Assembly: GCA_964394925.1 (NCBI GenBank) | Contig: CAYMZG010000002.1 | Coordinates: 20,947 to 84,946 of the forward strand | Length of the DNA: 64,000 nucleotides | Reading direction: 5' to 3' | Source of the DNA: an uncultured Candidatus Saccharibacteria bacterium | Lineage (GTDB): Bacteria; Patescibacteriota; Saccharimonadia; Saccharimonadales; CAYLGV01 | Part shown: positions 1,049 to 61,943 of the stretch, in pieces | Layout of the letters: the number at the start of each line of letters is the position of its first letter | How positions within the stretch are numbered: the first letter of the stretch is position 1 | Notes under the pieces: generated by a model | Database searches by the model: none | The model's input: the letters and a program-made list of their open reading frames with translations, nothing else | Told to the model about the DNA's origin: nothing | Made by a program: the position numbers and the translations under genes

Positions 1049-1069
1049 CAACAAACATAAGCGTAATCA

Positions 1070-2449
1070 ATGAAACAGAAAAAGAATAAAATCACCGTTC
1101 GTGCCGCCGCCGAAGCACCCGCCATCGCCCTGGATAAGGCTGTTACGTCAACGACTGAACTGTCCAAGAAGCTCCCTGGTGGCAAGCTGGTTGCCAGCAC
1201 GCGAAACTACTGGCGCATTCTCGGACCCGGCCTCACAACTGGTGCTTCCGACGATGACCCCTCTGGCATCGCCACCTATTCACAGGCCGGTGCCCAGTAC
1301 GGCTTTGGCATGCTCTGGTTGGCCGTGTTTACCTTCCCGCTCATGTCGATCGTACAAGAAATGTGTGCCCGCATTGGCTTGGTAACTGGTCGCGGCCTGG
1401 CGGCCAATATTCGCTTACATTTTTCGCGACGTGTTCTCATACTCTGTTCTTTACTACTATTTGCGGCGAATGCCTTCAACATTGGTGCCGACTTAGGAGC
1501 TATGGCTAAAGGTGTTCAGCTACTGCATCCGCAATTTTCGTTCGCCGCTCTTGTCATTGGCTTTACGGTCTTGTGTCTCGGTATCCAGATCTTCTTTAAT
1601 TATGGGCGTTACGCCCGTTATCTAAAATGGCTTGCCCTCGTGCTCTTGGCTTATGTGCTGTCGGCCATTCTGGCCAAAATTAACTGGGGTACGGTGATGC
1701 ACCAGGCTGTAACGCCACACATTAAGTTCGAGAAAGACCAGATCTTACTGATTTGTGCTATTCTCGGTACCACCATTTCCCCGTATCTCTTCTTCTGGCA
1801 AACGTCGCAAGAAGTCGAAGAGCAGATTCTGGCTGGCAAAAAATCGCTGAAAGCACGCCGTGGCTCAAATAAGTCAGAAATGCGACTCATGCGCATTGAC
1901 GTCTGGTCGGGTATGTTGCTGTCAAACGTAGTAATGTTCTTCATTATTGCCGCGTGTGGTGCCATTTTGTTCCCGAATGGCATCACCACTATCACCTCGG
2001 CCGCACAAGCTGCGGAAGCCCTGCGACCCTTTGCCGGCAATGCCACGTATTGGCTGTTCGCGATTGGCATCATTGGCACAGGACTCTTAGCCATACCTGT
2101 TTTGGCGGGCTCGAGCTCATACGCCTTTAGTGAGGCTTTTCATTGGCGCGAAGGTCTGTATCGCCCTTTGGGGCAAGCCTATGCTTTTTATGGCATTATT
2201 ATTATCTCTATGCTGGTTGGCCTCGGTATTAACTTTATTGGCCTGGATCCGTTTAAAGCGCTCATCTATTCAGCTGTTGCAAACGGCTTAGTTGCCCCTG
2301 TTGTACTGTGTTTTGTGGTCATCATGAGCAGCAGCAAAAAGATTATGGGGCGTTGGGCCAACCCACGCCCGATGGCCTGGATTGGCTGGTTTGTGATTGG
2401 CCTTATGTCGGTAGCCGGTATCGCTGCCGTTATTACGATGTTTATGTAG
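1070..2449 (+). CDS. NRAMP-family divalent metal (Mn2+/Fe2+) transporter
   Basis: 459 aa, about 11 TM segments; conserved NRAMP N-terminal block 'GPGLTTGASDDDPSGIATYSQAGAQYGFGMLW' and 'MSIVQEMCARIGLVTG'. Confidence 0.8.
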   Translation: MKQKKNKITVRAAAEAPAIALDKAVTSTTELSKKLPGGKLVASTRNYWRILGPGLTTGASDDDPSGIATYSQAGAQYGFGMLWLAVFTFPLMSIVQEMCARIGLVTGRGLAANIRLHFSRRVLILCSLLLFAANAFNIGADLGAMAKGVQLLHPQFSFAALVIGFTVLCLGIQIFFNYGRYARYLKWLALVLLAYVLSAILAKINWGTVMHQAVTPHIKFEKDQILLICAILGTTISPYLFFWQTSQEVEEQILAGKKSLKARRGSNKSEMRLMRIDVWSGMLLSNVVMFFIIAACGAILFPNGITTITSAAQAAEALRPFAGNATYWLFAIGIIGTGLLAIPVLAGSSSYAFSEAFHWREGLYRPLGQAYAFYGIIIISMLVGLGINFIGLDPFKALIYSAVANGLVAPVVLCFVVIMSSSKKIMGRWANPRPMAWIGWFVIGLMSVAGIAAVITMFM

Positions 2450-2876
2450 ATTGGCCGCGGCGGCGCTGGGCCGCTTCAATGTGTTTGTGGAGTTTGTGCA
2501 GCTCCGCAGGCGGTTGATTATTGTACATCTCATGAATGTGATGAAACTCTTTATCGAGCTCGGCCAATTCTTCGTCACTTAGGTCTTCAATATTCAAAAA
2601 GTTGTCGCGAGCTGCTTTACTGGCACGAATTAGCTCGTCAAGCTTGAGTTGCACTGCCTTGCCATCACGGTTCTGGGTGTTTTGAATCAGAAATACCATC
2701 AAAAACGTCACAATTGTAGTTCCAGTGTTAATAACTAACTGCCAGGTGTTAGAAAAGTGAAAGATCGGTCCAGAGATAGCCCACACCACAACAATCGTGA
2801 GCGCCAATAAGAACGCTTTTGATGAACCGGTGATTGTTGCCACCCTGCTCGCTATTTTGTGAAAGATCTCGTTCAT
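2442..2876 (-). CDS. Low-affinity iron permease family protein (Fet4-like small membrane protein)
   Basis: 144 aa; 'WAISGPIFHFSNTWQLVINTGTTIVTFLMVFLIQNTQNRD' matches the hallmark block of this family; C-terminal charged coiled tail. Confidence 0.65.
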   Translation of the reverse strand: MNEIFHKIASRVATITGSSKAFLLALTIVVVWAISGPIFHFSNTWQLVINTGTTIVTFLMVFLIQNTQNRDGKAVQLKLDELIRASKAARDNFLNIEDLSDEELAELDKEFHHIHEMYNNQPPAELHKLHKHIEAAQRRRGQST

Positions 2877-5243: not shown

Positions 5244-6560
5244 TTAGGCAATCTTTACGCACCCGCAAGAACCTGAGATGCGCTTGCGACCACTTGATGA
5301 TAACTTTTGCACTTTCGTTCTTACATTCTTCTTCTGACACAGTGGGCATTCTTTTGATACAAAGTCACAATCTGCATCATCATCTTCGTTGCTCGTGTCG
5401 TTGCCAATTTTTGATTCAGACATGCCAGATGGGCAAGAGTTTGAATTCTCTGTTTGCTTGGCCTTTGACCTATTCTCCTCAAGCGCTTCTAGATCACCAC
5501 GCGCAATTGCTTGGCGACTCGCTTCAATATAGCGAGCCGCTTCAAGGCCAAAGACACGACTATCTATTGAGTGATCCATAATTGCTTGATCAACCATATG
5601 AAAGCCCGAAAGATCATTCAGTAAACGTACCGCATCAATTGGTTTATGAATTACAGGGGCAGCTGAAATGAGCTCTTGGGTGATTTTCTTAACTTTGGGC
5701 TCAAACAAGGCTTCGCGCTCGCGGCACATATCGAGGTAATCCTGATAGTTTTGAGATGGTCGATCCTCACCAAAGAAAGTACCAGATATGCCATCCCATA
5801 GCTTTACGATATCTATCACGCCGTTTGGAATAAGATCATTGCGAATGAGGATGGGTATGTCAATAATCTCTGCCGGCGACAGACCAACATAATCCGCCCC
5901 GAGCGCCTGGCCAAGCTTGGCGGCAGTTGCTTCATCGTGAGGTACCTCCCCCTCAGCGGCAATTCCAGCTACAAAAGCCGACTCAAGGGCCAAGGCACCT
6001 TCTGACTTACCGATTAGTTGCAGAGAGCAGCTCATAGTCTCAGTAAAGAAACCCTGCTCCGGTAGATTCTCGGCCCGCGACACAACCAGCATGCTGTAGT
6101 TTTCAAAAAGACCATCTTTGAAGTACTGCTCTATGCGAAAAGCGTTGCGTGTTTCAGCCTCAGTACGCGCTCGCATAATTGGATGATTCGATGCAAAACG
6201 AAGGCTATTGGCTTGAATGGAGTCCATGATCTGTCCATGCTGGACCACTTTCCCTTCAGCTGTAATGTTCAATGGAACCTTTTCCATTACGTGGCCGGTC
6301 TTTATGGTACGCTCAATGACGTCGGTGCGAACATTGATCTCAACCATATGTTCTGCTTCTTTGTCGCCTTCGTAATATGCTCGATCGATGCCTTGCTTCA
6401 AGTTCTCAATGGGGCTTTCAACAGGAAGCGCCTCAATACTAGTTGCCTGATTCGCAGCAACTTGACCAATGAATGTACCTGCCCGTAACCGAACCTCAGA
6501 ATCAACCTCCATCTCGGAGGCAACCCTTGTTTTTGGAAGTTCGGCACTGGCTACTGCCAT
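5244..6560 (-). CDS. Hypothetical protein with Cys-rich C-terminal tail (CPLC...CGC)
   Basis: 438-aa uninterrupted ORF, no recognisable family; C-terminus 'CDFVSKECPLCQKK...SGSCGCVKIA' looks like a zinc-ribbon. Confidence 0.4.
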   Translation of the reverse strand: MAVASAELPKTRVASEMEVDSEVRLRAGTFIGQVAANQATSIEALPVESPIENLKQGIDRAYYEGDKEAEHMVEINVRTDVIERTIKTGHVMEKVPLNITAEGKVVQHGQIMDSIQANSLRFASNHPIMRARTEAETRNAFRIEQYFKDGLFENYSMLVVSRAENLPEQGFFTETMSCSLQLIGKSEGALALESAFVAGIAAEGEVPHDEATAAKLGQALGADYVGLSPAEIIDIPILIRNDLIPNGVIDIVKLWDGISGTFFGEDRPSQNYQDYLDMCREREALFEPKVKKITQELISAAPVIHKPIDAVRLLNDLSGFHMVDQAIMDHSIDSRVFGLEAARYIEASRQAIARGDLEALEENRSKAKQTENSNSCPSGMSESKIGNDTSNEDDDADCDFVSKECPLCQKKNVRTKVQKLSSSGRKRISGSCGCVKIA

Positions 6561-6779
6561 AAAAATACCCCTGTCCCTTTATAAAACAGAGGCTACGAAA
6601 AAACGTTACCGCTCCTGCTCGAGAGACTTACCCCGTGTCTGGCTTGTGATGGTGCTTTCGGCTTCACTTACAGTTGCGGCACAGCTCAGGATTCTCACCT
6701 GATTCCGGTTATTTGTTATGTTAACTATTTAGTAGTGTAGCACGCGCGGCACACACTACATGTAGTAGTTTTAACTATT

Positions 6780-7484
6780 TTACTTGGCCCTAAAGCTTTT
6801 TATGGCGTCAGTGAAGATGGTTATATTCGGTTGTATGTTCTGATCATTAAACACAAAGAAATATTTGTGTTTGCCCTTGTTTGGGCCAGTCACATTGACC
6901 GTGTTGATGCCGTCGGGTGAGCCCGTCCCTGTTTTGTTAAGAATAACGAGCGAGAAGTCACAATGGAAATCAATCTGTTTAAACTTAGCTAGGTTCCAAT
7001 TGTCACCCTGTCCGGTCGCCCCCGCACTTTTTTGAGTATACGTGATGCAGTTGTCCGAAATGTCGCCTGGTTGCAGGGTATCGCCAACAGCAGTCACCGG
7101 CATGAGCTTGTTGACCGGCAAAGTAGTGGGGATCACATCAACATACAACGTTAATTTGCGGTTATCCTCATTCTTTTTGGTAGCCTGCCAGGTTAGACTA
7201 TTCTCGGTCGAATTAGAAACACGGCTTAGCAACTTCCAGTCGCCCGGTAGCTGCATGGTAAAGGTTGGCTCATCGATGCGCAGGGATGATTGCACCGCAT
7301 CAACCGACTGCACGACTGTACGTTTTTGACCCTCAACATAGGTATCCTTGTTGCTACGCTTAATATCCATATAAATAAGTGAGCCGATTGCGCCAACAAT
7401 AGCAAAGGTAACAATCAGAACAATCGCCACACGCGTACGTCGGCGCCTACCAGGTCTGTGGCCATATTTGTACTTAACTTCCAT
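6780..7484 (-). CDS. Hypothetical membrane-anchored extracytoplasmic protein
   Basis: 234 aa; Arg-rich N-terminus then a single TM ('VAIVLIVTFAIVGAIGSLIY'); no family recognised. Confidence 0.4.
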   Translation of the reverse strand: MEVKYKYGHRPGRRRRTRVAIVLIVTFAIVGAIGSLIYMDIKRSNKDTYVEGQKRTVVQSVDAVQSSLRIDEPTFTMQLPGDWKLLSRVSNSTENSLTWQATKKNEDNRKLTLYVDVIPTTLPVNKLMPVTAVGDTLQPGDISDNCITYTQKSAGATGQGDNWNLAKFKQIDFHCDFSLVILNKTGTGSPDGINTVNVTGPNKGKHKYFFVFNDQNIQPNITIFTDAIKSFRAK

Positions 7485-7564
7485 GCTTTAGCACCTTAGC
7501 CCATATTATACATGAAGCTTATGCTTCACACCCATAAGCTAACTCACTATTCTCCCAAGAGTAC

Positions 7565-7601
7565 GGAAAGCCGCCAAAAGAACAATTGTTCTTGGCTTTC
7601 C
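7565..7601. repeat. 37-bp palindromic element, copy 1 (core AAGAACAATTGTTCTT flanked by GGAAAGCC/GGCTTTCC)
   Basis: Read directly: GGAAAGCCgccaaAAGAACAATTGTTCTTGGCTTTCC; near-identical inverted copy at 11945-11981; about 70 bp upstream of the ORF starting at 7484. Confidence 0.8.
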
Positions 7602-7644
7602 TGATTGGCTATAGCAAACCCTCTTGTTGAAATAGTAAGTTAGC

Positions 7645-8298
7645 TTATGGACCAGCAATAATGAGGATGTCAGCGTCGGTTGGTTTGTCTTCGCCAGCTG
7701 GCAAGCTGCCAACCGTACCCTTAACAGCGTCAGCGATCTTCTTAGCCTGATCGGCGTTCTGACCACTTACATCAACAACAGTTATGGTGGTTGGTGGTGT
7801 CTTGGCCTCGCCACCATCGTTTGCCGTTAGCTGCTGCGCCTTGAGTGCCGTGGCTACTGCTTGGCGAGCGGTGGTGTTGCCGATGACCTTGATCTTGGCA
7901 TTGTTGTTTTGAATCGTTACCGTACTAACATTTACGATCTTATTAGTGCTTGGGCGGTACAAAATTGCCAACTTGGCGTTGGAATAAATGAGACTAACAT
8001 CGCCGTTTTCGGCATTGTTAAAGAAAGCGCCATATTGCTTCTTGGTGGCTTCTTTGTCTTTAACGGTGGCAATGGTGGGCTTTTCGTCTTTTGGCAAATT
8101 GTAGAGCTTGCCCACTTCGGAAACAGTCTTGTCGGCTTCCTGTTGCGCGACTGAATCGGCCGATGGTGGATTAGCTTTAAGGTGTTGGTACTGCCTAAAG
8201 TAGTAGGCGCCGAAGACGGCGAGCCCAACAATTACCAGTACATTAGCGGCCGCGAACAGCGGCTTTTTGAGGTTCTTCTTCTTTTTCGTCGTTTCCAT
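7645..8298 (-). CDS. LytR/CpsA/Psr C-terminal (LytR_C) domain protein, membrane-anchored
   Basis: 217 aa; N-terminal TM; C-terminal '...VTIQNNNAKIKVIGNTTARQAVATALKAQQ...ITVVDVSGQNADQAKKIADAV' resembles the LytR_C domain. Confidence 0.4.
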   Translation of the reverse strand: METTKKKKNLKKPLFAAANVLVIVGLAVFGAYYFRQYQHLKANPPSADSVAQQEADKTVSEVGKLYNLPKDEKPTIATVKDKEATKKQYGAFFNNAENGDVSLIYSNAKLAILYRPSTNKIVNVSTVTIQNNNAKIKVIGNTTARQAVATALKAQQLTANDGGEAKTPPTTITVVDVSGQNADQAKKIADAVKGTVGSLPAGEDKPTDADILIIAGP

Positions 8299-8332: not shown

Positions 8333-9130
8333 TCAACGTAGGGTGAAAGCGAGAATCAATAGGAGCCCCGTCACAATACGATAGTACCCGAAGATATATA
8401 ACCCGTGTTTGCTGAGAAAATGCAGCATAAAGCGAATCGCAAACAGACCGCTAATCATAGCCGTGAGCACACCAACAATTACCGCCCCGCGTTCATCACT
8501 GAACTGCTGCATAATGCCTTTTTCAGTAAAAACTTTTAGCACAGCGCCGGCTGTAATGGGAATACCGAGTAGGAATGAAAAACGGGTGGCCGCCACGCGG
8601 TCGAGGCCCGTAAACAAACCAGCCGTAATGGTACTACCGGAACGTGACACACCAGGAATAACGGCAATCGCTTGGGCAAAACCCATGGTCATTGCTTCTT
8701 TGGTATTCACATCTTCGAGTGCCGTGTGTGCTTTGCGTTTTTTGTAGTATTGCTCGGCCAGAATCATGATAAGACCAAACAGCAGCATGGTAGTACCTAC
8801 TAATCGGCCCGAACGGAAGACCGACTCCGCCGAACTCTCAAGCAGAAAACCAATAATGGCAGCTGGAATCGTAGCCGCAATCAGCAGCCACGTAAGGCGC
8901 GTTTCCTTACTTTTTACGAACAGTGATTTAGCGTATTTGATAAGATCTTTCCAGAAATATGCAATTAAGGCAATCAACGTACCGGCGTGCAACGCAACAT
9001 CGAAGGCGAGCCCGTTATTAAACACCCCGAGGGCATGGTGAGCTATCACCAAATGACCCGAAGAGGACACTGGAATAAACTCAGTTAGCCCCTGTATTAA
9101 CCCCAAAATGAATGCCTGAATAAGCGTCAT
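8333..9130 (-). CDS. uppP: Undecaprenyl-diphosphate phosphatase
   Basis: 265 aa; 'GLTEFIPVSSSGHL' and 'PGVSRSGSTI' BacA/UppP signature blocks. Confidence 0.9.
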   Translation of the reverse strand: MTLIQAFILGLIQGLTEFIPVSSSGHLVIAHHALGVFNNGLAFDVALHAGTLIALIAYFWKDLIKYAKSLFVKSKETRLTWLLIAATIPAAIIGFLLESSAESVFRSGRLVGTTMLLFGLIMILAEQYYKKRKAHTALEDVNTKEAMTMGFAQAIAVIPGVSRSGSTITAGLFTGLDRVAATRFSFLLGIPITAGAVLKVFTEKGIMQQFSDERGAVIVGVLTAMISGLFAIRFMLHFLSKHGLYIFGYYRIVTGLLLILAFTLR

Positions 9131-9149
9131 AATTCTCCTCTAGTATACG

Positions 9150-9947
9150 CTAACGTTGGTAAATATCGCGCTTCAGAAATATCACAGCCGACACCAAGAG
9201 AAAGACTGCCGAGACACCAAGCATCACCCACACATTGGTGGCGTGCAGGCCGTTAGCGGCAATACCAGGATTGTTGTAGTAATGGAACGGTGATAGCCGC
9301 TCAATTGTTTTGATGCCGCTCACGCTGGGCGCAAACGAGGTAAGCAAGTAGGTCGAAAAGGCGATCAACCCAGCAATACTACCCGAGAAGCCACGGCGAC
9401 CGCTAACAGCACCAATAGCAAAGCCAAGACTACCGAACAAGAACACAAGTAGCCACACACCTAAGGCAGCTTCGATAAGCCGCATAAAACTCATAGTTTC
9501 GTGAATAAGAATAAGCCCTACCCACACACCTACAACCGCCGTCATACAGATCACCAGGCTAACCACAATACCTGCCGCTAACTTTTCGATGTATACCTTA
9601 AAGCGTGAGACGGGTTGTGATAGCGCTGTTTGCAAGGTGCCCTCACCCTCCTCACCAGCGAGCAAGCCAGTAAATAGCATAATGCTCATAACCATCAGGA
9701 GCAGTGGCACGCGCAGTCCAAAGACTTCTTGCGACACATAACCAGGCACTGTTTTGAGCGAGCTCACATCACCAACAAGGCCCTTCATAGATTCGGGAAG
9801 ATTCTTCAGCGCTTCGTCGAATTGGCCACCCGAAAATGAGTGGTAAAAGGCCATCATGAGCAGGCACATACCAATCACGCCCAAACCCCAGAAAACGATT
9901 GACCAACGCTGTTGATACAGTGTTTTGGTAAAGATCGACTTAAACAT
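9150..9947 (-). CDS. ABC-2 family transporter permease
   Basis: 265 aa, 6 TM, immediately downstream of and overlapping the ABC ATPase gene by 8 nt. Confidence 0.7.
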   Translation of the reverse strand: MFKSIFTKTLYQQRWSIVFWGLGVIGMCLLMMAFYHSFSGGQFDEALKNLPESMKGLVGDVSSLKTVPGYVSQEVFGLRVPLLLMVMSIMLFTGLLAGEEGEGTLQTALSQPVSRFKVYIEKLAAGIVVSLVICMTAVVGVWVGLILIHETMSFMRLIEAALGVWLLVFLFGSLGFAIGAVSGRRGFSGSIAGLIAFSTYLLTSFAPSVSGIKTIERLSPFHYYNNPGIAANGLHATNVWVMLGVSAVFLLVSAVIFLKRDIYQR

Positions 9948-10833
9948 GATCGACCTCCTGGTAGTAGTGCATAAAGATCGACTCTAGATCAGCCTCGGTA
10001 ATGGTCACGTTTTGCACCTTATGTTTGGCCAGCAAACCAAGCACCACATTAATGTCGCCTGTCGATGTAAACTCAGTGTACTCATTGGTAGCATTTTGTA
10101 GCTTGGTGCCCTTTATTTTGCCAAGTTGCTCGAGTAGTTTCTTGTCTTTAGTGGTCACCCGAATATATCTGGTTGAGGTATCGGTTAGTTCCTTCATAGT
10201 CTTTGTAGCAACCAGCTCACCTTCACGAATGAAGGCCACATTATCACACAACGCTTCGACTTCGCTTAACACATGCGAAGAAATAAAAGCCGTTTTACCC
10301 GCTGCCTTGTGCTCAGCAATGATCTTGTTAAATTCAGCTTGCATGAGCGGGTCTAATCCACTCGTAGGTTCATCAAAAATAAGCAGCTCAGGCCTATGCA
10401 TGAGAGCTGAAATAAGTCCCACTTTTTGCCGATTACCACGTGATAAGTTCTTAAAGCGCTTGCTCAGATCACACTCTAGTCGGTCAGCCAGTTCCTGAAT
10501 ATATGCCTTATCGAAGCTACCGCGCAGGCTACCGTAGTACTTCAGCTGTTGCCAACCACTCAGGTCTTTGTCGAGCGCGAAATCACCTGCCAAAAAACCG
10601 ATGCGCTTACGGATCTCCACGCCTTGTTTGCGCGTATCCATGCCAAAAATTGTAATGTCGCCCGAAGTTGGTCGGATCAGATCCATCAGCATGCTAATGG
10701 TGGTGGTCTTACCCGCACCGTTAGGGCCAAGAAAACCCGTCACTTCACCCTCTTTTACGCTGAGGTTCAGATCACTCACGCCACGGCTCGTGCCATACAT
10801 CTTGGTCACGTGCTTGAGTTCAATAACTGCCAT
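9940..10833 (-). CDS. ABC transporter ATP-binding protein
   Basis: 297 aa; Walker A 'GPNGAGKTT', signature 'LSRGNRQKV', Walker B 'LLIFDEPTSGLD'. Confidence 0.85.
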   Translation of the reverse strand: MAVIELKHVTKMYGTSRGVSDLNLSVKEGEVTGFLGPNGAGKTTTISMLMDLIRPTSGDITIFGMDTRKQGVEIRKRIGFLAGDFALDKDLSGWQQLKYYGSLRGSFDKAYIQELADRLECDLSKRFKNLSRGNRQKVGLISALMHRPELLIFDEPTSGLDPLMQAEFNKIIAEHKAAGKTAFISSHVLSEVEALCDNVAFIREGELVATKTMKELTDTSTRYIRVTTKDKKLLEQLGKIKGTKLQNATNEYTEFTSTGDINVVLGLLAKHKVQNVTITEADLESIFMHYYQEVDHV

Positions 10834-10848
10834 ATTTGTATTGTACGC

Positions 10849-11304
10849 CTATGCGGGTTGAGCCTTGGTTTTTAACTCACTGAGGCGCGGAATAAAACTC
10901 TGAGCGGCGCCGTCAAGCCCGAGTACTTTCAGACTGCCAATCAGAACATACAAGGCATCGAGTTCGGCTTGTTCGAGCATGCTGGCCTGCTCAGCCTGCG
11001 TAAAACGGTGTTCAACTTTATCAACAAGCCACTTCTCTTCGTGCGGCTTGATCTCATTCGTTTGCAGCGGCGGGGTTTCGGACGTTTGAATCACCTCGAG
11101 CGAGCGCGCCGAATTGTCACGCTTTTTCAAATGACCACGCTTAATAAGACTATTTACATGTAATGCCACCGTAGCCACCGAGTTATAGCCCTGCCCAGCC
11201 ATGACTTCACGGTAACTGGGGCTGTAGCCGTGCTCGGCAATGAACGTTTCAATAAATGTCAGCAGCTCTTTTTGCTTTTTGGTAGGGCGAACAACCTCAG
11301 GCAT
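10849..11304 (-). CDS. LexA N-terminal DNA-binding-domain protein (wHTH regulator lacking the S24 peptidase domain)
   Basis: 151 aa; 'KKQKELLTFIETFIAEHGYSPSYREVMAGQGYNSVATVALHVNSLIKRGHL' matches the LexA_DNA_bind fold; no Ser/Lys peptidase region follows. Confidence 0.5.
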   Translation of the reverse strand: MPEVVRPTKKQKELLTFIETFIAEHGYSPSYREVMAGQGYNSVATVALHVNSLIKRGHLKKRDNSARSLEVIQTSETPPLQTNEIKPHEEKWLVDKVEHRFTQAEQASMLEQAELDALYVLIGSLKVLGLDGAAQSFIPRLSELKTKAQPA

Positions 11305-11857
11305 GACTTCTCCTTATGTTACTTTTACGTTTTGTAACGGTTTGCTTAGTGGTTTTCTTAGCCTTGCGTACATAGGCGGCGTGTCCGTGTGGGCGATGCG
11401 CTACATATGGTGCGTGCGGGCGTGGCTTTGGCTGTGACTTTTTCTTTACAAACTTCTCGGGGAAAACCCAGTACTTGTACCAGAAGTAGTTCCACACAGT
11501 GAAGAAGCCCGACGAAATAAACTGGCCGATGTACGGTGTAATTCCGACTGTTTTAAGGCCAAATACAATCAGATAATCCAGCACGAAATCGGTGAGCGTA
11601 ATAAAGATGTAACGGCCCGTAACCTCGGTTTGATGTTTCTTCAGTTCGGGGTTTCGGAATACCCAATAGCGTTGCAGCAAATAGTTAACTGTCCAGCCGA
11701 CGAGTGTTGAGATAGACTTCGCCCAAAAGAAGCTCGATTGAAAGCCTTTATCGAAGATAAAAAAAGTTAGGTAGCCCGACCAAAAATAGGCGCCACCACT
11801 GATCATATATTCGGTGAAACGCTTTATTTCTTTGGTTTGTTTTTTCTGAAGTTTCAT
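11297..11857 (-). CDS. GtrA-family polysaccharide-synthesis membrane protein
   Basis: Start taken at the internal Met (MKLQKK); 4-TM GtrA-like topology ('YMISGGAYFWSGYLTFFIF', 'YLLQRYWVFR'); Lys-rich C-terminal tail. Confidence 0.65.
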   Translation of the reverse strand: MKLQKKQTKEIKRFTEYMISGGAYFWSGYLTFFIFDKGFQSSFFWAKSISTLVGWTVNYLLQRYWVFRNPELKKHQTEVTGRYIFITLTDFVLDYLIVFGLKTVGITPYIGQFISSGFFTVWNYFWYKYWVFPEKFVKKKSQPKPRPHAPYVAHRPHGHAAYVRKAKKTTKQTVTKRKSNIRRSHA

Positions 11858-11944
11858 AATGCTTCTGCTTCTTGATAGATAGTATAGCATCGGGGTGGCG
11901 CCTGTACACATTTTGTTTGGAGGGGCTCGGTTTATAGTGCCAGA

Positions 11945-11981
11945 GGAAAGCCAAGAACAATTGTTCTTCTGGCGGCTTTCC
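11945..11981. repeat. 37-bp palindromic element, copy 2 (inverted orientation relative to copy 1)
   Basis: GGAAAGCCAAGAACAATTGTTCTTcTGGCGGCTTTCC; differs from the reverse complement of copy 1 at a single position; lies in the divergent intergenic region between the GtrA gene and the sugar transferase gene. Confidence 0.8.
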
Positions 11982-12031
11982 GGACCCTACAAGTAAAATG
12001 CGTACAGACGGTGATACAATAGTCACCAGAT

Positions 12032-44964: not shown

Positions 44965-47814
44965 ATGCACACAGTTAGTCGGTCCACAATACATCGTCGT
45001 ACATTTGCTTGCTTGCTCCTATTAGTCGTGGTTTGTTCTTCACTCTTCCCTAGGACCGGCTACACAGCGGCTACCTCACCTTGGCTAACCCCAGATCCAA
45101 CCCTAACAAAATTAGGAACAATTGATAGTAATGCCCCTCTAACAGCAGACATTGTTGGCAACCAAGATTGCCAACCCGCCGAAATTATCACCCGCCCCGA
45201 GCGCACCATCCCACCCCAAAGCAAACAAAGTCACGATAGTTGCCTTGTAGACACTGGCTTTGGCGCCCTGTCGGCAAGTGGTTATTTGCAACGGCAAGGC
45301 AGTGATGCTTTTGGCTATCTACGATCATCGGTTGGCAATCAGGCTATTGTTGGCATTCCGCGCACCAACAATGCCCTGGCAACACTAGCTTCTTCTACTC
45401 ATGGTACCTATGTCGGCTTCTATGACAACCTGCGTAGTCTTGTTTCTAGCACTACATTTAGTGATATGGTCACGCACACAATGCCGAATAACCCCTCGGC
45501 CGCTCTAAGCGACCACACCGGCAACAAACTGGGTGTTGAGTTATCGTCGTTAAGTTTTTCGAGCGAAGGTGACTGGGCGGTTGTCGAAGCGCCGGGGGTT
45601 GCCATGCTTCGCATAAACACTGCGTCCCATTTGGTACTCCCTTTTTCTGAAGCACCATTGCTCGACAACACTGGACTAGCCTATCGTACGGCTATAAATG
45701 CCGACGGAAGATATGCAATTGTCATCTCTAAAACGCGTTCGCTCATGAAACTGTATGATCTATCAACATGTGCAGCAATTCCCGACACTATAGCTGGCCC
45801 TGTAAGTTGTACAGCCGTCGATCTGCTGCCATTCATCAAGACCAAGATCACCAACTATACGAGTGTCGCAAGCGTTCGATTTCGCGGCGACTACACCCTT
45901 GAGCTATACATAAATACATCAGCAGCCACCATTGAACACGTCCTTATTACCGCTTCAGGGCAATCCGCTGCTCGCTTTGAATACTTGGCACTGGGGGATT
46001 CGTTTGCCTCGGGCGAGGGTGCCTACCAATATAAATCAGCAACCGATACAACCGCCAATGGTTGCCATCTATCCCTGCGCTCATATCCCTATTTGATCGC
46101 CAAACAACTGAGCCTAGACCAGACGGAATCAGTGGCATGTTCTGGCGCCACCACAAACGACCTTATCAATGGTGTGGCCGACTATCGCTTATATCATTCA
46201 CAGGCCAAAGGTAAGGAATCGGAAGCCTTTGACGAGGCAATCTTGCGTGACTTTTTGCCTGGGTATCGTGCTCAAAAGCTATTTGCTAATAGGTATCGCC
46301 CGCGGGTATTAACGGTCATGATTGGCGGTAATGATGTGGGCTTTTCAGATATCCTGCAACGTTGTCTTGGACCCGACACTTGTTACAGCCACTACGAGGA
46401 TCGTCTTGAGTTGTTAAATGAGGTGAGTGCACAGTTTAATTCGTTGGCGGGTACCTTTTCTGAAATAAAACATGCCGCGCCAGATTCTGAGCGTATTTAT
46501 GTGCTTGCCTATCCCCAGATTGCAGATGCATTTGGAAACTGCGCGCTTAATGTTCACCTAAATTATGATGAACTTGTTTTGGCGGGCACATTGGTAAGTC
46601 ATTTGAATAGCATCATCAAAGGCGCTGCTGAACATGCTGGAGTCACCTTCCTTAACACAGAGGATGCTTTGCATGGTCATCGCTTGTGCGAGACAACCGC
46701 GAACAGTATTGCGGTCAACGGACTAACTATTGGTAACGATATTTTGAACCTCCCGTACGCTCATGGTCCGATCGCGAAGGAAAGTTATCACCCAAATAGC
46801 CTTGGTCATGAACTTATGAAAAGTAATATATTGTCGCTCGCGAGTAATTTTTCGGTCTTAAACAAAGCTCCAAACCCCTCAATTAAAGCCAAGCAACCCG
46901 ACACAACAAGCGATGCGCTGAAAGTTCCCAAGTCAAATCGAGCGATTAGAAAAGTCATTCACCAAAAAAGCAATAACCCAGCGCCAGCCAAGAAGAAGAC
47001 AAAACGGATTGCGACAACCAAAGGCGTAGCTAGCATCTTCAGATCAGGTAAACAGCCACGTGTTTTATTGGATGGTCAAGGAGAACCAATTGGAACAGTC
47101 ACCTCAAACCCCGATGATTCGATAACGGTTGAGTTCACCCCTACAGACGAAACCCCTGATGGCCCCCATACCGTAGACATAGTTGGCGAGAACACTAGTG
47201 GCGAGCCGATTGCCGTCACCGAAACGGTTGTGGTTGGTGATTCCCAGGGGCCGTGCGGAGCTTTTGCGCCCAGCAATACCGATGTCGATCACGATGGCAT
47301 CGATGACGCCTGCGACCCATTAATTGGCACGGGTAGTATGGCTTCGTCGGATCAACTGGTTGTTGTGAACACCGGGGGCACGGGTGGTACAGGGACCACA
47401 GTAACTACAGGAGCCCCGGGAACCGCAGAATCAAGCATTCCTACTACACAAACACCGACCACGAGCCTCGTTACCACAACCGATAGCGTAGCCACACCGA
47501 GCACTCCAAATTTGATCATCCAAGGTTCACGGACCATAGCCATCCCAATTAATCCAACAGCCTTAACGGTTAGCAAGCCCAAGAATAGCACCGTTGCACA
47601 AGTCACACAGCCAGCTACTAACGGGCTCGTGAAGGGTCGGCAGACCACAGCCAACAGTCACAATACATCCAGGCCAGGAATCACACCACCCGCCTCGGCA
47701 TATAAAAACCCACCAAAGCTTGATGTATTGAAGCCGTGCAGTCTGTTTTTGCTTATAACTATTTGTTTGGTTGTGATGTTCGTAATCTATAAACGAAGAA
47801 AGGACCGCCGATGA
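44965..47814 (+). CDS. Cell-surface SGNH/GDSL-family hydrolase (949 aa) with signal peptide, Thr-rich stalk and C-terminal TM anchor
   Basis: Signal peptide 'LLLLVVVCSSLFP'; SGNH block I 'YLALGDSFASGEGA', later 'MIGGNDVG' and 'SYHPNSLGH'; 'DVDHDGIDDACDP' Ca-binding-like motif; C-terminal 'LFLLITICLVVMFVIYKRRKDRR'. Confidence 0.6.
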   Translation: MHTVSRSTIHRRTFACLLLLVVVCSSLFPRTGYTAATSPWLTPDPTLTKLGTIDSNAPLTADIVGNQDCQPAEIITRPERTIPPQSKQSHDSCLVDTGFGALSASGYLQRQGSDAFGYLRSSVGNQAIVGIPRTNNALATLASSTHGTYVGFYDNLRSLVSSTTFSDMVTHTMPNNPSAALSDHTGNKLGVELSSLSFSSEGDWAVVEAPGVAMLRINTASHLVLPFSEAPLLDNTGLAYRTAINADGRYAIVISKTRSLMKLYDLSTCAAIPDTIAGPVSCTAVDLLPFIKTKITNYTSVASVRFRGDYTLELYINTSAATIEHVLITASGQSAARFEYLALGDSFASGEGAYQYKSATDTTANGCHLSLRSYPYLIAKQLSLDQTESVACSGATTNDLINGVADYRLYHSQAKGKESEAFDEAILRDFLPGYRAQKLFANRYRPRVLTVMIGGNDVGFSDILQRCLGPDTCYSHYEDRLELLNEVSAQFNSLAGTFSEIKHAAPDSERIYVLAYPQIADAFGNCALNVHLNYDELVLAGTLVSHLNSIIKGAAEHAGVTFLNTEDALHGHRLCETTANSIAVNGLTIGNDILNLPYAHGPIAKESYHPNSLGHELMKSNILSLASNFSVLNKAPNPSIKAKQPDTTSDALKVPKSNRAIRKVIHQKSNNPAPAKKKTKRIATTKGVASIFRSGKQPRVLLDGQGEPIGTVTSNPDDSITVEFTPTDETPDGPHTVDIVGENTSGEPIAVTETVVVGDSQGPCGAFAPSNTDVDHDGIDDACDPLIGTGSMASSDQLVVVNTGGTGGTGTTVTTGAPGTAESSIPTTQTPTTSLVTTTDSVATPSTPNLIIQGSRTIAIPINPTALTVSKPKNSTVAQVTQPATNGLVKGRQTTANSHNTSRPGITPPASAYKNPPKLDVLKPCSLFLLITICLVVMFVIYKRRKDRR

Positions 47815-48455
47815 CAACCTCAATTACCACTAACAATAAAACCCGAGACATCGTCTCAATAAACACTAATCCACTTGTAGAAACAGATGTATATTTGCAC
47901 ATTAAACTGCGCGGCTTTAATGATCAACCATTGTTCTTCGAGCCGGCAGACTATCACTATTTTGAGTTCTTGTTGCAGCATAATTTAACGGATCACATTA
48001 CTGAGATGGAACGTTTTGGGGGCATCTACCCTGATTTTCATAATGATATTGAGCTGCTGTGTTTTAGCCTGCTTGAGACACGATTGTATTTGCTGGTTCA
48101 TCAGAAGACTACTTTACGCACCAAGGATTTTTTACAATCCTTGCTCACCAGATACGCCCGCTATTACCGAATGAAATATGAGCGCATGGGCCCGGTATTT
48201 GATCCGAGTCAGCGTGTTGCTCCAATTCGCTCGCAGCGAGACTTTGATTTTGTTAGTCGCGGCATTCATTTAAGTCCGCCGAGGTGGCAACGATATCGTT
48301 ATTCTAGCTTGCGGTACTACTTAGACGAAACGAGCCCACCGTGGCTCAAGGTTAATCGGCTACTTGGAGCCTTTACTTCCCCTTTAGCCTACTTGGCGTT
48401 CCTAAAGAACTATGAACACTATCAGGAAAACCTGAGGAATGATCCATTGGGCTGA
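47811..48455 (+). CDS. IS200/RAYT-like (Y1 transposase fold) protein with degenerate HuH motif, possibly domesticated
   Basis: 214 aa; 'YLHIKLRGFNDQPLF', 'DYHYFEFLLQ', 'ELLCFSLLETRLYLLVHQ', 'RYARYYRMKYERMG', 'SPPRWQRYRYSSLRYY' align block-by-block with REP-associated tyrosine transposases, but HxH reads RLY. Confidence 0.45.
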   Translation: MTTSITTNNKTRDIVSINTNPLVETDVYLHIKLRGFNDQPLFFEPADYHYFEFLLQHNLTDHITEMERFGGIYPDFHNDIELLCFSLLETRLYLLVHQKTTLRTKDFLQSLLTRYARYYRMKYERMGPVFDPSQRVAPIRSQRDFDFVSRGIHLSPPRWQRYRYSSLRYYLDETSPPWLKVNRLLGAFTSPLAYLAFLKNYEHYQENLRNDPLG

Positions 48456-48491: not shown

Positions 48492-49028
48492 TTACGCTTC
48501 AGTGTCGGCAGAATCGTCTTCAGATTCAGGTTTAGTGACAGTGTCAGCGCTCGGCTTGTCGGCCTTTGTAGTTGCCCCCGGCTTCAATATGATGTGCCTG
48601 TCGCGGCCTTCGCCAACCGATTCGGTGATAAGCCCCGCGTCGTTAGCCTCTTTGTGCACAATGCGCCGATCAGCAGCATTCATGGGTCGTAGCTCCATTG
48701 GTTCGCCGGTTTCAGCTACTTTTTTGATCCACGCAGCAGCTTTATCTGCCACGCGACCGGCCCGAGCCTTCTTATAATCGGCTATATCAACGTTTACACG
48801 AGTATATTCATAGCCTTGATTCTTCAGCGCATTACTAATAATGAACTGGAGGGAACGCATGGTGTCACCGTGTTGGCCAATCAAAAAGCCGTTCATAGAG
48901 GTGCTTGGCACATTGAGTTCAATTACCTCATGATCTTCGGTTGTTGCGTATACGTCGGTGTTAAGACCAAAGAAAGACAGCATGTCTTCTAGGTATTTCT
49001 TGGCATATAAGATTGCTTCATCCATCAC
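48492..49028 (-). CDS. jag: Jag/KhpB RNA-binding protein (KH + R3H domains)
   Basis: 178 aa; R3H block 'ELRPMNAADRRIVHKEANDAGLITESVGEGRDRHIIL'; immediately downstream of yidC with a 4-nt overlap. Confidence 0.8.
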   Translation of the reverse strand: MMDEAILYAKKYLEDMLSFFGLNTDVYATTEDHEVIELNVPSTSMNGFLIGQHGDTMRSLQFIISNALKNQGYEYTRVNVDIADYKKARAGRVADKAAAWIKKVAETGEPMELRPMNAADRRIVHKEANDAGLITESVGEGRDRHIILKPGATTKADKPSADTVTKPESEDDSADTEA

Positions 49029-50110
49029 TTTTTCCTCCGCTTATTATTTTTTGCAGATTTCTTTTTGTTGTTGGTCGGGTTGGCTTTTTTGGCGCCCGAT
49101 TTAGAAGTGCTCGTCTTGCTTGCTTTCGCTTGAGATTTCTTGGTTGCCGCTTCGCTCACTACCGCTGCCTCGACAGTCGCGCCGGGTACTTTGGAGCCCT
49201 TACGACGTTTTTGCTTCACGCCAGTGGCGGGCACCACTTCACCTTCTATGATGTCTTTAGCAACTGCTTCTTCGGCCGATTCTTCCATCTCTTTTTCGTC
49301 ACGCTTCAGAATGATTGATTGCTGGATGTACGCCACAATTCCACCAGTTAACCAGTACAGTGACAGTGCCGATGGGAGGCTAATGGTGAAGAATACAATC
49401 ATGAACGGTAAGAAGTAGCGCGTGCTCTGGCCGACTGCGGCGTTCACTTCACTTTGATCAGTCTTCTTACCGCTGTTCGCTTCTTTTAGAATGTCACGTA
49501 GCTTGCGGCCATCCTTGGGTGCTGGCATGAGCTGCTTACTCTGGAAGAATTGAGCAATTGCACTACCAATAACAAGTAGCATTGCTGGCCAGTAAATACC
49601 CTGACCCTTGGTAATAGCTGCCTTGCCGAGATCAATGAAGCCAAACAGGGTGGCATCGAAGCCGTTAACCGACTGCGCTAACTGCTTAATACTGGTGAGG
49701 TTATGCAGGAACGGATACGAGAAGGTGTAGATGGTCTTAGGGTCCGCCACCACGCGGCGCAGGCCAGAGTAGAGACCAATGAGCACGATCAGCTGGATAA
49801 TAAGGGTGCCGAGACTACCGAATGGGCTTATCTCTCGCTCTTTATATAGCTCCATCATCATCTGGGATTCTTTTTGGCGGTTGCCACCAGCAGCTTTCTT
49901 GATGCGCTTGAGTTCTGGCTGGAGTTCACGCATTGCTTTGGCCTGATGCAATTGCTTCTTAACGAGCGGCCACATACAGAGACGAACCACAATCGTAAAG
50001 AGAATGATTGCCAAACCAAAGTTATGGCCAGGCAAGAGCCCGTAGATTAGGACGAGCAGGTTAAAGATAGGTTTAACAATTAGGACCTCAAAAATGGAGG
50101 CTAGGTACAT
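49025..50110 (-). CDS. yidC: Membrane protein insertase YidC
   Basis: 361 aa; 'NFGLAIILFTIVVRLCMWPLVKKQ' and 'MMELYKEREISPFGS' YidC/Oxa1 blocks; Lys-rich C-terminal tail; conserved rnpA-yidC-jag synteny. Confidence 0.85.
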   Translation of the reverse strand: MYLASIFEVLIVKPIFNLLVLIYGLLPGHNFGLAIILFTIVVRLCMWPLVKKQLHQAKAMRELQPELKRIKKAAGGNRQKESQMMMELYKEREISPFGSLGTLIIQLIVLIGLYSGLRRVVADPKTIYTFSYPFLHNLTSIKQLAQSVNGFDATLFGFIDLGKAAITKGQGIYWPAMLLVIGSAIAQFFQSKQLMPAPKDGRKLRDILKEANSGKKTDQSEVNAAVGQSTRYFLPFMIVFFTISLPSALSLYWLTGGIVAYIQQSIILKRDEKEMEESAEEAVAKDIIEGEVVPATGVKQKRRKGSKVPGATVEAAVVSEAATKKSQAKASKTSTSKSGAKKANPTNNKKKSAKNNKRRKK

Positions 50111-50154
50111 ACATCCTCACTTTCGAGATATATCTTACCACAAAATATGCTGTT

Positions 50155-50505
50155 TTACTTCTTTAAAATGCCAGCTTGGTGCAATTGCGCATGGACCATG
50201 CGACGCAGTTCATCATTCGGCATATCTGCCACCTGCTCATGAAAAACCGTCACCACCATATCGTGGGGCCCTGAAAGGTGATCTTCCTCAAGGCGAAAAG
50301 CTTCAAACAGGCGTCGACGAATACGGTTGCGCCGCACAGCCGATTTATGAACTTTTTTACTCACCACCACTGCTAAGCGGTATTCCGAACGGCGTTTATT
50401 CTCGGCATATTTGAGCGAAATAAGCGGACCACGGACCGTTTGGCCGTGTTGATAGACATAGCGCAGCGAACCATGCCCATGAAACCGATGTGAGCGGGAA
50501 ATCAT
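50155..50505 (-). CDS. rnpA: Ribonuclease P protein component
   Basis: 116 aa; 'RLAVVVSKKVHKSAVRRNRIRRRL' RnpA signature; lies between rpmH and yidC. Confidence 0.85.
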   Translation of the reverse strand: MISRSHRFHGHGSLRYVYQHGQTVRGPLISLKYAENKRRSEYRLAVVVSKKVHKSAVRRNRIRRRLFEAFRLEEDHLSGPHDMVVTVFHEQVADMPNDELRRMVHAQLHQAGILKK

Positions 50506-50549
50506 GTTGGTCTTTAGTATAGCGTGCTTAGTAAGTAAAAAGCGAAAGG

Positions 50550-50687
50550 TTAGGCGCTGAGGCGAACGCGACCCTTAAGACGACGACGCTTTAGAATATT
50601 GCGGCCAGCCTTGGTCGACATGCGCTTCATAAAACCATGCACACGTGCATTCTTGCGCTTTTTTGGTTGATACGTACGTTTTGGCAT
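50550..50687 (-). CDS. rpmH: 50S ribosomal protein L34
   Basis: Hand translation of the minus strand gives [45 protein letters not shown] (45 aa). It is absent from the ORF track only because it is under 60 aa. Confidence 0.9.
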
Positions 50688-50996
50688 AGACCATTATTAT
50701 ACATAGATTTGCCATTTATCCCAAATTATTATTTGTGTTAGCCATTTGCACGTTTGTATGGCACTGTCTACCCCTACCCCGCTATTGAGTGTTTTTGACA
50801 ATATTTATTCACGATTTCGTGGTAGTTTTCCCCACTTCCTTTTTTATTATCCACAGATTAACAGATAGAAATATTGGGTGTGTATAACTCTGACCTGTTG
50901 GGCAAAAATAACCTCCTTCAAGCAAGGTCATCTGTAAAATTGTGGAAAACTCATGTAGAGTTAGGTATAGTATTGATCAAATAAATGGAGTGAGGG
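50688..50996. promoter_or_regulatory. Candidate chromosomal replication origin (oriC): DnaA-box cluster and AT-rich region between rpmH and dnaA
   Basis: Perfect TTATCCACA at 50847-50855; one-mismatch boxes TGTGTATAA (50879-50887, minus orientation) and TGTGGAAAA (50941-50949); weaker TTATCCCAA near 50717; AT-rich flanks; canonical rpmH | dnaA position. Confidence 0.6.
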
Positions 50997-52370
50997 ATGA
51001 AGGAAGACGTCTGGCAGGCGGTCCTGGGTGAAATCGAACTATCTGTCTCTCGAGGCAGCTTTGTGACGTGGTTCAAAAACACCAGGCTACTGCGTGACAA
51101 AGATGGCATCCTCACCATTGGCGTCGCAAACGTCTTCATTAAGCAGCAGATGGAGCGCAAATATAACGACTTAGTGCTTGAAACACTCCGGAAGAACGGC
51201 GTCAATCCAAAGCAGGTGGAATACAAGATCTACACCACTAGTCCTGCTGCCCGAAAAGAGGAAGAGCCCGTTATATTGAGCGCACAGCCTATTGTGCAAA
51301 CACCTACTCCTCAGTCCACCAATCGAACAGGCACTTCGTTGACACATGGCTACCGCCAGGGCCTCAACGAACGTTACACCTTTGAAAGCTTTATCGTTGG
51401 CTCTGGAAACGAATTAGCTTACGCGGCTTGCCAAGCGATTGCAGCAAGTCCCGGCACCAAGTACAACCCACTGTTTGTATATGGTGGTGTGGGAATCGGC
51501 AAAACCCATCTTATTCAGGCAGTTGGTAATGAAGTACTGGCCCGCAAGCCAGAGGCACGCATTGTGTACGCCTCTACCGAACAATTTGTACAAGAATTTG
51601 TTGATTCGCTGCGCTTTAAGAAGACGACCGACTTTGCTAAGCACTATCGGAGCGCCGACGTATTAATTGTCGACGACATGCAGTTTATTGCCGGCAAAGA
51701 AAAGGTCCAAGAAGAGTTCTTTCATACCTTTAATGCCCTGCACCAAGCCAATAAGCAGATTATTATAAGTAGTGATAAGCCACCGAAAGATATTCCAACC
51801 CTTGAGGAACGCCTGCGATCACGCTTTGCTTGGGGCATGCAGATCGACATGCAAAATCCCGACTTCGAGACACGCTGCGCTATCATTCAGACCAAATCAC
51901 AATTACACGGGGTCGAATTGACACCAGAAGTAATGGAATTCCTCGCTAACCTCGTGCAAACGAACATTCGTGAGCTAGAGGGCGCCCTAAACCAACTCCT
52001 CGCCTTCTGTGAGATGCGTGGACTCAGCCCAGACATTCAAATCGCCACCAGCCTGCTTGGCTCAACCAAGAGTCGCCCGAAGCACATTAGCGCCAAACAG
52101 ATTGTGGAGCGTACCGCCAAGTACTTCCAGGTACCGCTCGAAGATCTGCTAGGCCCAAAGCGCGACAAAGACATTGTTGTGCCCCGCCAGGTAGCCATGT
52201 ACATGCTCCGTAGCGAACTACATCTCAGTTTCCCTAAAATTGCCCGTGAACTTGGTCGCAAGGATCACACCACAGCCATTCACTCAGTCGACAAGATTGA
52301 AAAAGAGTCTTCTTTTGATACCGAAATCAAGACTGCTATTCATGATATTAAGGAGCGTTTGTATGCGTAA
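50997..52370 (+). CDS. dnaA: Chromosomal replication initiator protein DnaA
   Basis: 457 aa; AAA+ 'GGVGIGKTHL', 'LIVDDMQF', C-terminal DnaA DNA-binding domain 'VAMYMLRSELHLSFPKIARELGRKDHTTAIHSVDKI'. Confidence 0.95.
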   Translation: MKEDVWQAVLGEIELSVSRGSFVTWFKNTRLLRDKDGILTIGVANVFIKQQMERKYNDLVLETLRKNGVNPKQVEYKIYTTSPAARKEEEPVILSAQPIVQTPTPQSTNRTGTSLTHGYRQGLNERYTFESFIVGSGNELAYAACQAIAASPGTKYNPLFVYGGVGIGKTHLIQAVGNEVLARKPEARIVYASTEQFVQEFVDSLRFKKTTDFAKHYRSADVLIVDDMQFIAGKEKVQEEFFHTFNALHQANKQIIISSDKPPKDIPTLEERLRSRFAWGMQIDMQNPDFETRCAIIQTKSQLHGVELTPEVMEFLANLVQTNIRELEGALNQLLAFCEMRGLSPDIQIATSLLGSTKSRPKHISAKQIVERTAKYFQVPLEDLLGPKRDKDIVVPRQVAMYMLRSELHLSFPKIARELGRKDHTTAIHSVDKIEKESSFDTEIKTAIHDIKERLYA

Positions 52371-53712: not shown

Positions 53713-53737
53713 GTCATCTAAGGTACAATGGGCTGTA

Positions 53738-61909: not shown

Positions 61910-61943
61910 ATTTGTGTCTGCTTTCCCGAATCATCTCCTTAGA

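Follow-up and report, generated by a model that had tools for sequence, protein, structure and literature searches.

The 64,000-nucleotide stretch of DNA analyzed here (the window; positions 20,947 to 84,946 of contig CAYMZG010000002.1, assembly GCA_964394925.1, from an uncultured Candidatus Saccharibacteria bacterium) contains two copies of a 37-bp palindromic sequence, each of which is the apex of an imperfect palindrome of ~110-120 nt. These palindromes belong to a new family of insertion-polymorphic, intergenic elements of ~110-120 bp that carry an invariant 37-nt tip and occur in a narrow clade of Saccharibacteria. A total of seven copies are known, at four unrelated intergenic sites in five related Candidatus Saccharibacteria (TM7) genomes. 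The family is of the same kind as the miniature inverted-repeat transposable elements (MITEs), the repetitive extragenic palindromic (REP) sequences and ERIC, i.e., small dispersed repeats, and is previously undescribed and so far confined to this clade. We consider it probable, at roughly 60%, that the palindrome is an insertion element that was spread in trans by way of its central hairpin (hereafter P3), and not the operator of a regulator, which was the interpretation favored in the first-pass annotation of this DNA.

At positions 7565-7601, the forward strand reads GGAAAGCC-GCCAA-AAGAACAATTGTTCTT-GGCTTTCC, exactly as first described, and the second copy then reported is present at 11945-11981 on the opposite strand with one mismatch (GCCAG in place of GCCAA in the bulge). 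Searching with up to three mismatches returned these two matches in the window against 0.00 expected from 100 shuffles, and the motif GAAC-N4-GTTC, which forms the center of the 37-mer, likewise occurs in the 64 kb only at the two copies. P3 contains the 16-bp perfect palindrome AAGAACAATTGTTCTT, and the 37-mer hairpin folds as DNA at -10 kcal/mol (z = -3.6 to -4.3). The distance from the end of copy 1 to the downstream ATG (7484) of a gene for a 234-amino-acid protein with one hydrophobic segment, located at its N-terminus, is 80 nt, and the orientation relative to the downstream gene is identical for the two window copies. The 37-mer was therefore observed correctly at the outset, whereas its interpretation was too narrow: the long palindrome, the homology of ~68 bp and the shared orientation had been overlooked.

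Read on the strand of the downstream gene, the element consists of an outer arm, a 19-20-nt P2 segment, the 37-mer P3, 3 nt and the other outer arm, and on either strand its predicted fold is a three-way junction in which the outer arms pair as a stem of 26-30 bp (P1) and P2, a small side hairpin, stands next to P3. The whole insertion of copy 1 covers 7532..7650 (-), with a covariance-model match at 7536-7646 (95.9 bits) and pairing out to 7532-7650, and is located between the TAA (7647-7645) of a 217-amino-acid open reading frame (ORF) and the promoter of the 234-amino-acid ORF. Its P1 arms, at 7621..7650 (-) on the 5′ side, where the sequence is particular to this insertion, and at 7532..7561 (-) on the 3′ side, form a 30-nt inverted repeat whose two halves are 83% complementary and 59 nt apart. 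They enclose the P2 region at 7602..7620 (-), GGTTTGCTATAGCCAATCA, which is a weak side hairpin and the most diverged P2 among the copies, and P3 at 7565..7601 (-), in which a lower stem of 8 bp is followed by a bulge of 5 nt, an upper stem of 6 bp and the loop AATT. Copy 2 covers 11899..12010 (+) (covariance-model match of 108.5 bits) and lies between the divergent -10 boxes of an operon encoding GtrA, the regulator, ABC transporter and BacA proteins (-) and of a polysaccharide locus beginning with a sugar-transferase (Bac_transf) gene (+). Its P1 arms, at 11899..11924 (+) and 11985..12010 (+), are 26 nt long, 81% complementary and separated by 60 nt; the P2 side hairpin is at 11925..11944 (+), GCTCGGTTTATAGTGCCAGA, and P3, the second 37-nt hairpin, is at 11945..11981 (+) with the bulge CTGGC. 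The hexamer TGTACA in the 5′ arm of this copy is -35-like and is placed 16 bp from the TG-TATACT -10 box of the GtrA operon.

Folding as RNA gave -59.4 kcal/mol (z = -9.3) for copy 1 and -49.1 kcal/mol (z = -4.0) for copy 2. With DNA parameters, the same three-way junction was obtained in all four complete copies (z from -4.9 to -8.6), including copy 1 at -25.9 kcal/mol (z = -6.3). The homology between copies is restricted to ~68 central bp, and the outer arms are unrelated in sequence. Two switch-like arrangements were considered and rejected. A riboswitch-like alternation, in which GCCRR would pair with YYGGC in competition with the lower stem of P3, is disfavored by 6-8 kcal/mol relative to the three-way junction in three of the four copies, the alternative being favored in copy 2 only. 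An invertible promoter switch, an idea that arose from the opposite orientation of a diverged copy (L088, see below) and from the polysaccharide locus downstream, is unlikely, given that the arms are just 59-60 bp apart, the core contains no promoter and the arms differ between sites.

Outside the window, an exact-pattern scan with GCCAAGAACAATTGTTCTT over 185,579 species genomes pointed to one relevant metagenome-assembled genome (MAG), CAYLGV01 (GCA_964383395.1), and the matches in Prochlorococcus, Nostoc and other organisms were judged to be chance; together with the neighboring proteins, the one relevant match assigns the DNA to a Candidatus Saccharibacteria bacterium. This fragmentary MAG contains at least three copies, compared with two in the 64 kb of the window: one 3′ of a gene of the HtrA/PDZ type (contig L005), one between convergent PEGA-domain and sortase genes (L006), and one at 4330-4440 of L015 that is orthologous to copy 2 of the window. 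Contigs from the Logan assemblies supplied a PEGA/sortase copy with a variant core (L074, ERR14098938), a diverged copy upstream of a sugar-transferase gene in the opposite orientation (L088, SRR32910817), and a copy at a contig end (L016). All seven copies are intergenic, and all four insertion sites adjoin cell-envelope genes (GtrA/BacA/ABC, Bac_transf, PEGA/sortase and HtrA-like). Of the seven, four (L005, L016, L074 and L088) are located at contig ends, so that the element behaves as a repeat in assemblies, and repeat-type contig breaks fall inside it. Exact-match scans of JGI metagenomes yielded 0 matches and then 10 chance matches only, and those of viral contigs yielded chance matches only; all collection scans were of this exact-match type, which diverged copies such as L015_2, L074 and L088 would escape. 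Searches of 167 kb of related DNA with nhmmer (68-nt core) and the covariance model returned no copies beyond the known ones, and no other long-hairpin family was found in the 64-kb window. Literature searches covering palindromic repeats of Saccharibacteria and MITEs of Patescibacteria turned up no mention of a comparable element.

Orthologous loci were retrieved through homologs of the flanking proteins, and both filled and empty states were observed at three sites. Site 1, between the genes for the 217- and 234-amino-acid proteins, is filled only in the window; in L015 and L017 it is empty, with 38-46 bp and no palindrome between the stop codon and a conserved TATAAT. Site 2, between the GtrA operon and the Bac_transf gene, is filled in the window and L015 and empty in L017 and L018. 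In L017, 3 bp lie between CACCGAA and GTGGTACAAT, the element being missing exactly between CACCGAA and GTGG, and the divergent -10 boxes (TGaTATACT and TGgTACAAT) are only ~12 bp apart. Site 3 (PEGA/sortase) is filled in L006 and L074 and empty in the more distant relatives L075, L076 and L077, in which 10, 1 and 16 bp separate the convergent stop codons. Since the same sites are empty in relatives, the whole ~110 bp represents an insertion, and the gained unit extends over the entire ~110-125 bp, outer arms included. For each filled site, the carriers are most parsimoniously explained by one gain on the branch that leads to them. The arms showed no significant similarity to the target flanks from which they might have been copied, and a search of the 167 kb of related DNA for further occurrences of them returned none. 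Both window copies stand beside native promoters, which are unchanged in the empty-site genomes; these and all other promoter positions are consensus predictions backed by conservation only.

Several features of these promoter regions were noted in passing. The divergent extended -10 promoters, TGnTATACT and TGnTACAAT, stand back to back at 9960-9995 of L017, and in the window they are found at 11881-11889 and 12012-12020. The ATG of the sugar-transferase gene follows its -10 box by ~11 nt, which suggests a leaderless mRNA or one with a very short leader. L018, a relative of 70% identity, has at 9870-10000 (+) a leader of ~130 nt before the sugar-transferase gene in place of the element, with two strong hairpins, CTTGGA-TTTA-TTCCAAG and GAGAGGGGA-TGC-TCCCCTCTC. 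At site 1, a native hairpin, TGAAGC-ATAA-GCTTCA (7513-7528, -), is located directly upstream of the TATAAT of the 234-amino-acid protein gene, and L017 has ATCAAGC-ATAA-GCTTGAT at the same place (~7412-7429, -), which amounts to a C-G to G-C swap; this hairpin may have no connection with the element and serve as a conserved operator or terminator.

The seven copies, three of which are truncated, were placed in a structure-anchored alignment in which pairs were then counted. In P1, both partners are altered between copies in 20 of the 26 pairs, and pairing is kept in 88% of cells versus 42-54% in slid controls, whereas the 14 pairs of P3 are either constant or altered only by loss of pairing, and all six copies that extend over the 22-mer GGAAAGCCAAGAACAATTGTTC carry it without change. 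In each pair of orthologous copies (window versus L015; L006 versus L074), 2 of the 37 positions of P3 differ, while fourfold sites in the adjacent genes differ at 58% and 65%, respectively (binomial P = 1.5e-11 and 3e-14). Because P3 is far more conserved than these fourfold sites, its sequence is constrained in place. The arm at site 3 differs at 12 of 26 positions, close to the neutral level. For the element as a whole, site 2 shows 14% differences versus 58% at fourfold sites, a degree of conservation equal to that of the surrounding coding DNA, and the arm differences of this pair are mostly disruptive or wobble, with no compensatory doubles. The pairing of P1 may have been kept by selection or by arm-to-arm template switching, or may simply reflect youth.

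In the model that we favor, a trans-acting enzyme would have dispersed the element, at least formerly, by recognizing the P3 hairpin or palindrome and not the element ends; an enzyme reading P3 in place of the ends would leave P3 invariant and the termini unconserved. The likeliest route would involve single-stranded DNA and a hairpin-reading enzyme of the HUH/Y1 or a similar type. No common function links the insertion sites, which include positions following a stop codon, separating back-to-back promoters and separating convergent genes, and the element would be tolerated wherever genes and extended -10 promoters stay unbroken; at site 2, it would now constitute the upstream promoter region of two operons. 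Several points weigh against this model. No mobilizing enzyme was identified, the ends of the element are not conserved, and there are just seven copies at four sites, with two in 64 kb. Target-site duplications are weakly suggested at best: the 3-bp candidates TAA/TAT, GTG/GTG and TAG/TAA have ambiguous boundaries, need mismatches and are not convincing. Mobility is deduced from presence and absence, and precise deletion of a palindrome could explain some of the empty sites. The ends are conserved and the middles variable in classical MITEs and REPINs (inverted pairs of REPs), the opposite of this element. A strand bias is typical of single-stranded DNA transposition, and the window copies show none: both lie to one side of the inferred oriC, and their orientations are opposite (n = 2). 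Finally, the in situ conservation of P3 and of the site 2 copy suggests a function at the level of the host, which a purely selfish element does not predict.

The first-pass annotation had read the 37-mers as operators for a LexA-type regulator, and the rival explanation in its fullest form is that GAAC-N4-GTTC binds the 151-amino-acid LexA-domain protein encoded at 10849-11304, or a true LexA, and controls envelope genes, the element merely distributing the site. The regulator gene is real (Pfam LexA_DNA_bind, E = 1.9e-12) and lies, as stated, close to copy 2 (641 bp). Its product has a good winged-helix domain of the LexA type, followed by a helical C-terminus without an S24 peptidase domain, and it belongs to an operon at 8333-11911 (-) that also encodes a GtrA-like protein, an ABC ATPase, an ABC-2 permease and BacA/UppP, a layout reminiscent of bacitracin-type resistance modules. 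The Gram-positive LexA/DinR (Cheo) box is CGAAC-N4-GTTCG, and the core of the element, a perfect 16-bp palindrome with GAAC-N4-GTTC half-sites, is of the size and half-site type bound by Gram-positive LexA. The 4-nt loop is also self-complementary, which a pure hairpin would not need, and both the strong in situ constraint on P3 and the envelope genes beside all four sites fit a regulatory site. However, the GtrA/regulator/BacA operon is conserved in L015, L017 and L018, and in L017 and L018, which lack the ABC-transporter genes, it has neither the element nor any GAAC-N4-GTTC nearby, so that the site is absent from the orthologous promoters of relatives. The native promoters do not differ between filled and empty sites, and the center of the palindrome is located ~64-89 bp upstream of the predicted starts and not over them. 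The bases flanking the motif are A/T in the element, not C/G as in the Cheo box, the site is carried on an insertion, and the conserved 8-bp arms and 5-nt bulge would have no role in a symmetric dimer site. The proximity of both window copies to promoters, which had been taken as an argument for an operator, is explained by where insertions were tolerated; CAYLGV01 has other copies 3′ of the HtrA-like gene and between two convergent stop codons, the latter position being shared by both site 3 copies (L006 and L074). No SOS gene adjoins the element, and no recA or lexA gene was found in the window or in the other DNA compared. The sole SOS-type operon among the DNA compared, at 1050-2712 (-) of L075, encodes a umuD-like protein (Peptidase_S24, 114 amino acids) and umuC/IMS, preceded by two small ORFs; there is no GAAC-N4-GTTC upstream of it, and the SOS box of this lineage, if any, would accordingly be a different motif. 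An operator for the LexA-domain regulator is thus unsupported, since the operon is kept without the element and the palindrome is misplaced relative to the promoters, and we regard this explanation as very improbable. Less improbable, though still unlikely, is that the three-way junction, read from the strand that has P2 ahead of P3, is a functional RNA (a stabilizer of mRNA 3′-ends or 5′-flanks, a processing site, a terminator without a U tract or a small RNA) that has been copied into several transcripts. Its conserved asymmetric architecture is typical of RNAs, and the P2-first strand folds better than its complement (-59.4 versus -49.0 kcal/mol in copy 1; -49.1 versus -46.6 kcal/mol in copy 2) and is the only strand on which some arm differences are G-U-compatible. 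In addition, the variation in GCCRR and YYGGC is compatible with pairing (AA/TT, AG/CT, GG/TT), and copy 1 and the copies at the third and fourth sites come directly after stop codons. On the other hand, covariation of this type is expected from any DNA palindrome, and the arm changes between orthologous copies are for the most part disruptive, without compensatory doubles. The orientation to the upstream gene is inconstant (sense at site 1, antisense to the HtrA-like gene in L005), and the site 2 element, flanked by divergent -10 boxes, belongs to neither predicted transcript. A T-tract terminator is absent, as is any promoter conserved inside the element. The Rfam covariance models gave no family match even at E <= 10, with only chance matches for copy 1 (E >= 0.5) and neither copy at a gathering score; on this result or on direct reading of the sequence, hammerhead, twister, SRP-like and attC-like identities were rejected. 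Hairpins are frequent after stop codons, and copy 1 and the site 3 copy are located where terminators are expected, yet unrelated chance palindromes or ordinary transcription terminators can be dismissed almost completely. They are refuted by the 37/37 and 36/37 identity with 0 matches expected, the ~68 bp of homology reach across genomes, the site 2 copy lies between promoters, and the copies have no T tract: 0 terminator-like sites (a GC-rich hairpin followed by a T tract) were found in either copy region.

The first-pass annotation had also offered a REP-like hairpin as an alternative, with reference to a RAYT-like gene at 47811. In other bacteria, the association of REPs with the RAYT gene is the rule, REPs flanking the gene, and a REPIN is made of two conserved REPs in inverted orientation (Bertels & Rainey 2011, PMC3116915). 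This alternative comes nearer the mark than the operator, the element being a dispersed, intergenic and insertion-polymorphic repeat, but several defining features of REPs and REPINs fail. Like a REP, P3 is short, extragenic and imperfectly palindromic (37 nt, with a bulge), the whole element can form a hairpin of ~100 nt, and a gene of the RAYT family is present in the same genome. Nevertheless, the conserved unit is single and central, with one P3 per element in place of an inverted doublet of conserved REPs, and each copy has its own long-stem arms. Conservation of the 5′ tetranucleotide is loose (GTAC/GTCC/GCAC), and the apparent copy number is low. REPs and REPINs number tens to hundreds of copies per genome, and work by Nunvar in 2010 reportedly associated REP elements with RAYT (Y1, IS200-like) transposases. 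As for the candidate enzyme, the ORF at 47811-48455 (+), which encodes 214 amino acids, is placed in the Y1 (IS200/RAYT) family by transitive homology. It had no direct match in Pfam, NCBIfam or PDB sequences, but a profile of its eight close homologs collected 2868 relatives, and 10 of 10 sampled relatives matched Pfam Y1_Tnp. For a low-confidence model (pLDDT 57), the fold matches of highest probability were ISDra2 TnpA and the E. coli RAYT-REP complex 4er8, none of them significant. On this sequence evidence, the protein belongs to the Y1/RAYT family, so that part of the earlier suggestion stands; its HUH motif and catalytic tyrosine have been lost, and copies of the element do not flank it. 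The HUH motif NHFH is replaced by TRLY and the tyrosine of SRYIHxNP by glycine or serine (SRG/SRS-IHLSP), invariantly in all eight close homologs; because these residues are replaced, the canonical chemistry is lost in this clade, and the protein looks domesticated. Its gene abuts its neighbors with almost no intergenic flanks, between a 949-amino-acid surface protein gene and jag, ~2.5 kb from dnaA, and pattern, hidden Markov model and covariance-model searches found no copies near it, the closest being more than ~35 kb away. The element thus resembles a REP as a dispersed hairpin of a size suited to a protein and is not a canonical member, and a canonical REP/REPIN-RAYT system, in which P3 would be the REP hairpin mobilized by the 47811-48455 protein, seems quite unlikely. 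It is tempting to speculate, albeit with considerable reserve, that P3 is a ligand retained by the host and read by a dedicated protein, or else that the three-way junction is a new mobile structured RNA. One candidate reader would be the catalytically dead RAYT-family protein, making a domesticated REP-RAYT pair in an ultra-small genome of the Candidate Phyla Radiation (CPR); another candidate would be the LexA-domain protein. In each case, the stem would be free to vary while the tip was under purifying selection, and the element would be a portable module, serving as a transcription insulator or roadblock, as an mRNA-end structure or as a chromosome-organization site near oriC.

The trans-mobilized insertion element that we prefer can also be compared with other classes of small repeats. 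ERIC/IRU, Correia (NEMIS), BOX, RUP and MITEs are palindromic intergenic repeats of ~100-150 bp that are recognizable over their full length, usually by terminal inverted repeats. As in ERIC, Correia, BOX and RUP, the present element is non-coding and intergenic, forms a long-hairpin imperfect palindrome of ~110-120 bp, varies in presence between relatives and can supply or displace promoter parts, as with the -35-like TGTACA; by contrast, only its central ~68 bp, and strictly its 37-nt tip, are conserved, its termini differ completely between sites, and there is no TA or other clear target duplication. Classical MITEs are similarly small, non-coding and present or absent at orthologous sites, but they have terminal inverted repeats common to all copies and to a parent IS, as well as target-site duplications of a fixed length, whereas the termini of this element differ at every site. 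The mosaic elements BIME-1 and RIB/RIP consist of inverted REPs around a central protein (IHF) site, and the present element is likewise a palindromic repeat with a sequence-conserved candidate protein-binding site at its center; however, the REP arms of BIMEs are conserved too, and the center here is a perfect palindrome, unlike an IHF site. Integron attC sites, with conserved R′′/R′ boxes (RYYYAAC/GTTRRRY) and a variable center, are the reverse of this arrangement.

The genomes of Saccharibacteria and of the CPR in general are very small, and a dispersed, mobile-looking hairpin element would be a useful marker of their dynamics. It breaks short-read assemblies, as seen from the four of seven copies at contig ends, and remodels the promoter regions of cell-envelope operons. 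The invariant tip, the self-complementary stems specific to each copy and the conservation of P3 point to recognition of the central hairpin over recognition of the ends, and the co-resident relative of Y1 transposases, with its catalytic residues all replaced, provides a concrete candidate for a domesticated hairpin-binding protein.

Some further observations concern other parts of the window. The neighborhood of the origin (48492-54787) contains jag-like, yidC-like and rnpA genes (-) followed by dnaA, dnaN and recF (+), and the rnpA-dnaA gap of 490 bp and the dnaA-dnaN gap of 250 bp are candidates for oriC, GC skew being uninformative at the scale of the window. No canonical parS with up to three mismatches was found in the window, so that a ParB-type role of the element is neither supported nor opposed. 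A match to the cobalamin riboswitch (RF00174) at 6635-6706 (-) scores 33.5 bits versus a gathering score of 31.5 bits and covers model positions 47-167 only; it is located between the 234-amino-acid ORF and a 438-amino-acid ORF (5244-6560, -) without a Pfam domain, which may be B12-related. Near the origin, the region 56328-63869 (-) encodes a 754-amino-acid fusion of GH3, phage-tail-lysozyme and M23 peptidase domains, a 1106-amino-acid protein with a C-terminal GDSL lipase domain and a TraG/VirB4-like ATPase, and may represent a type-IV-secretion-like or cell-wall-remodeling cluster.

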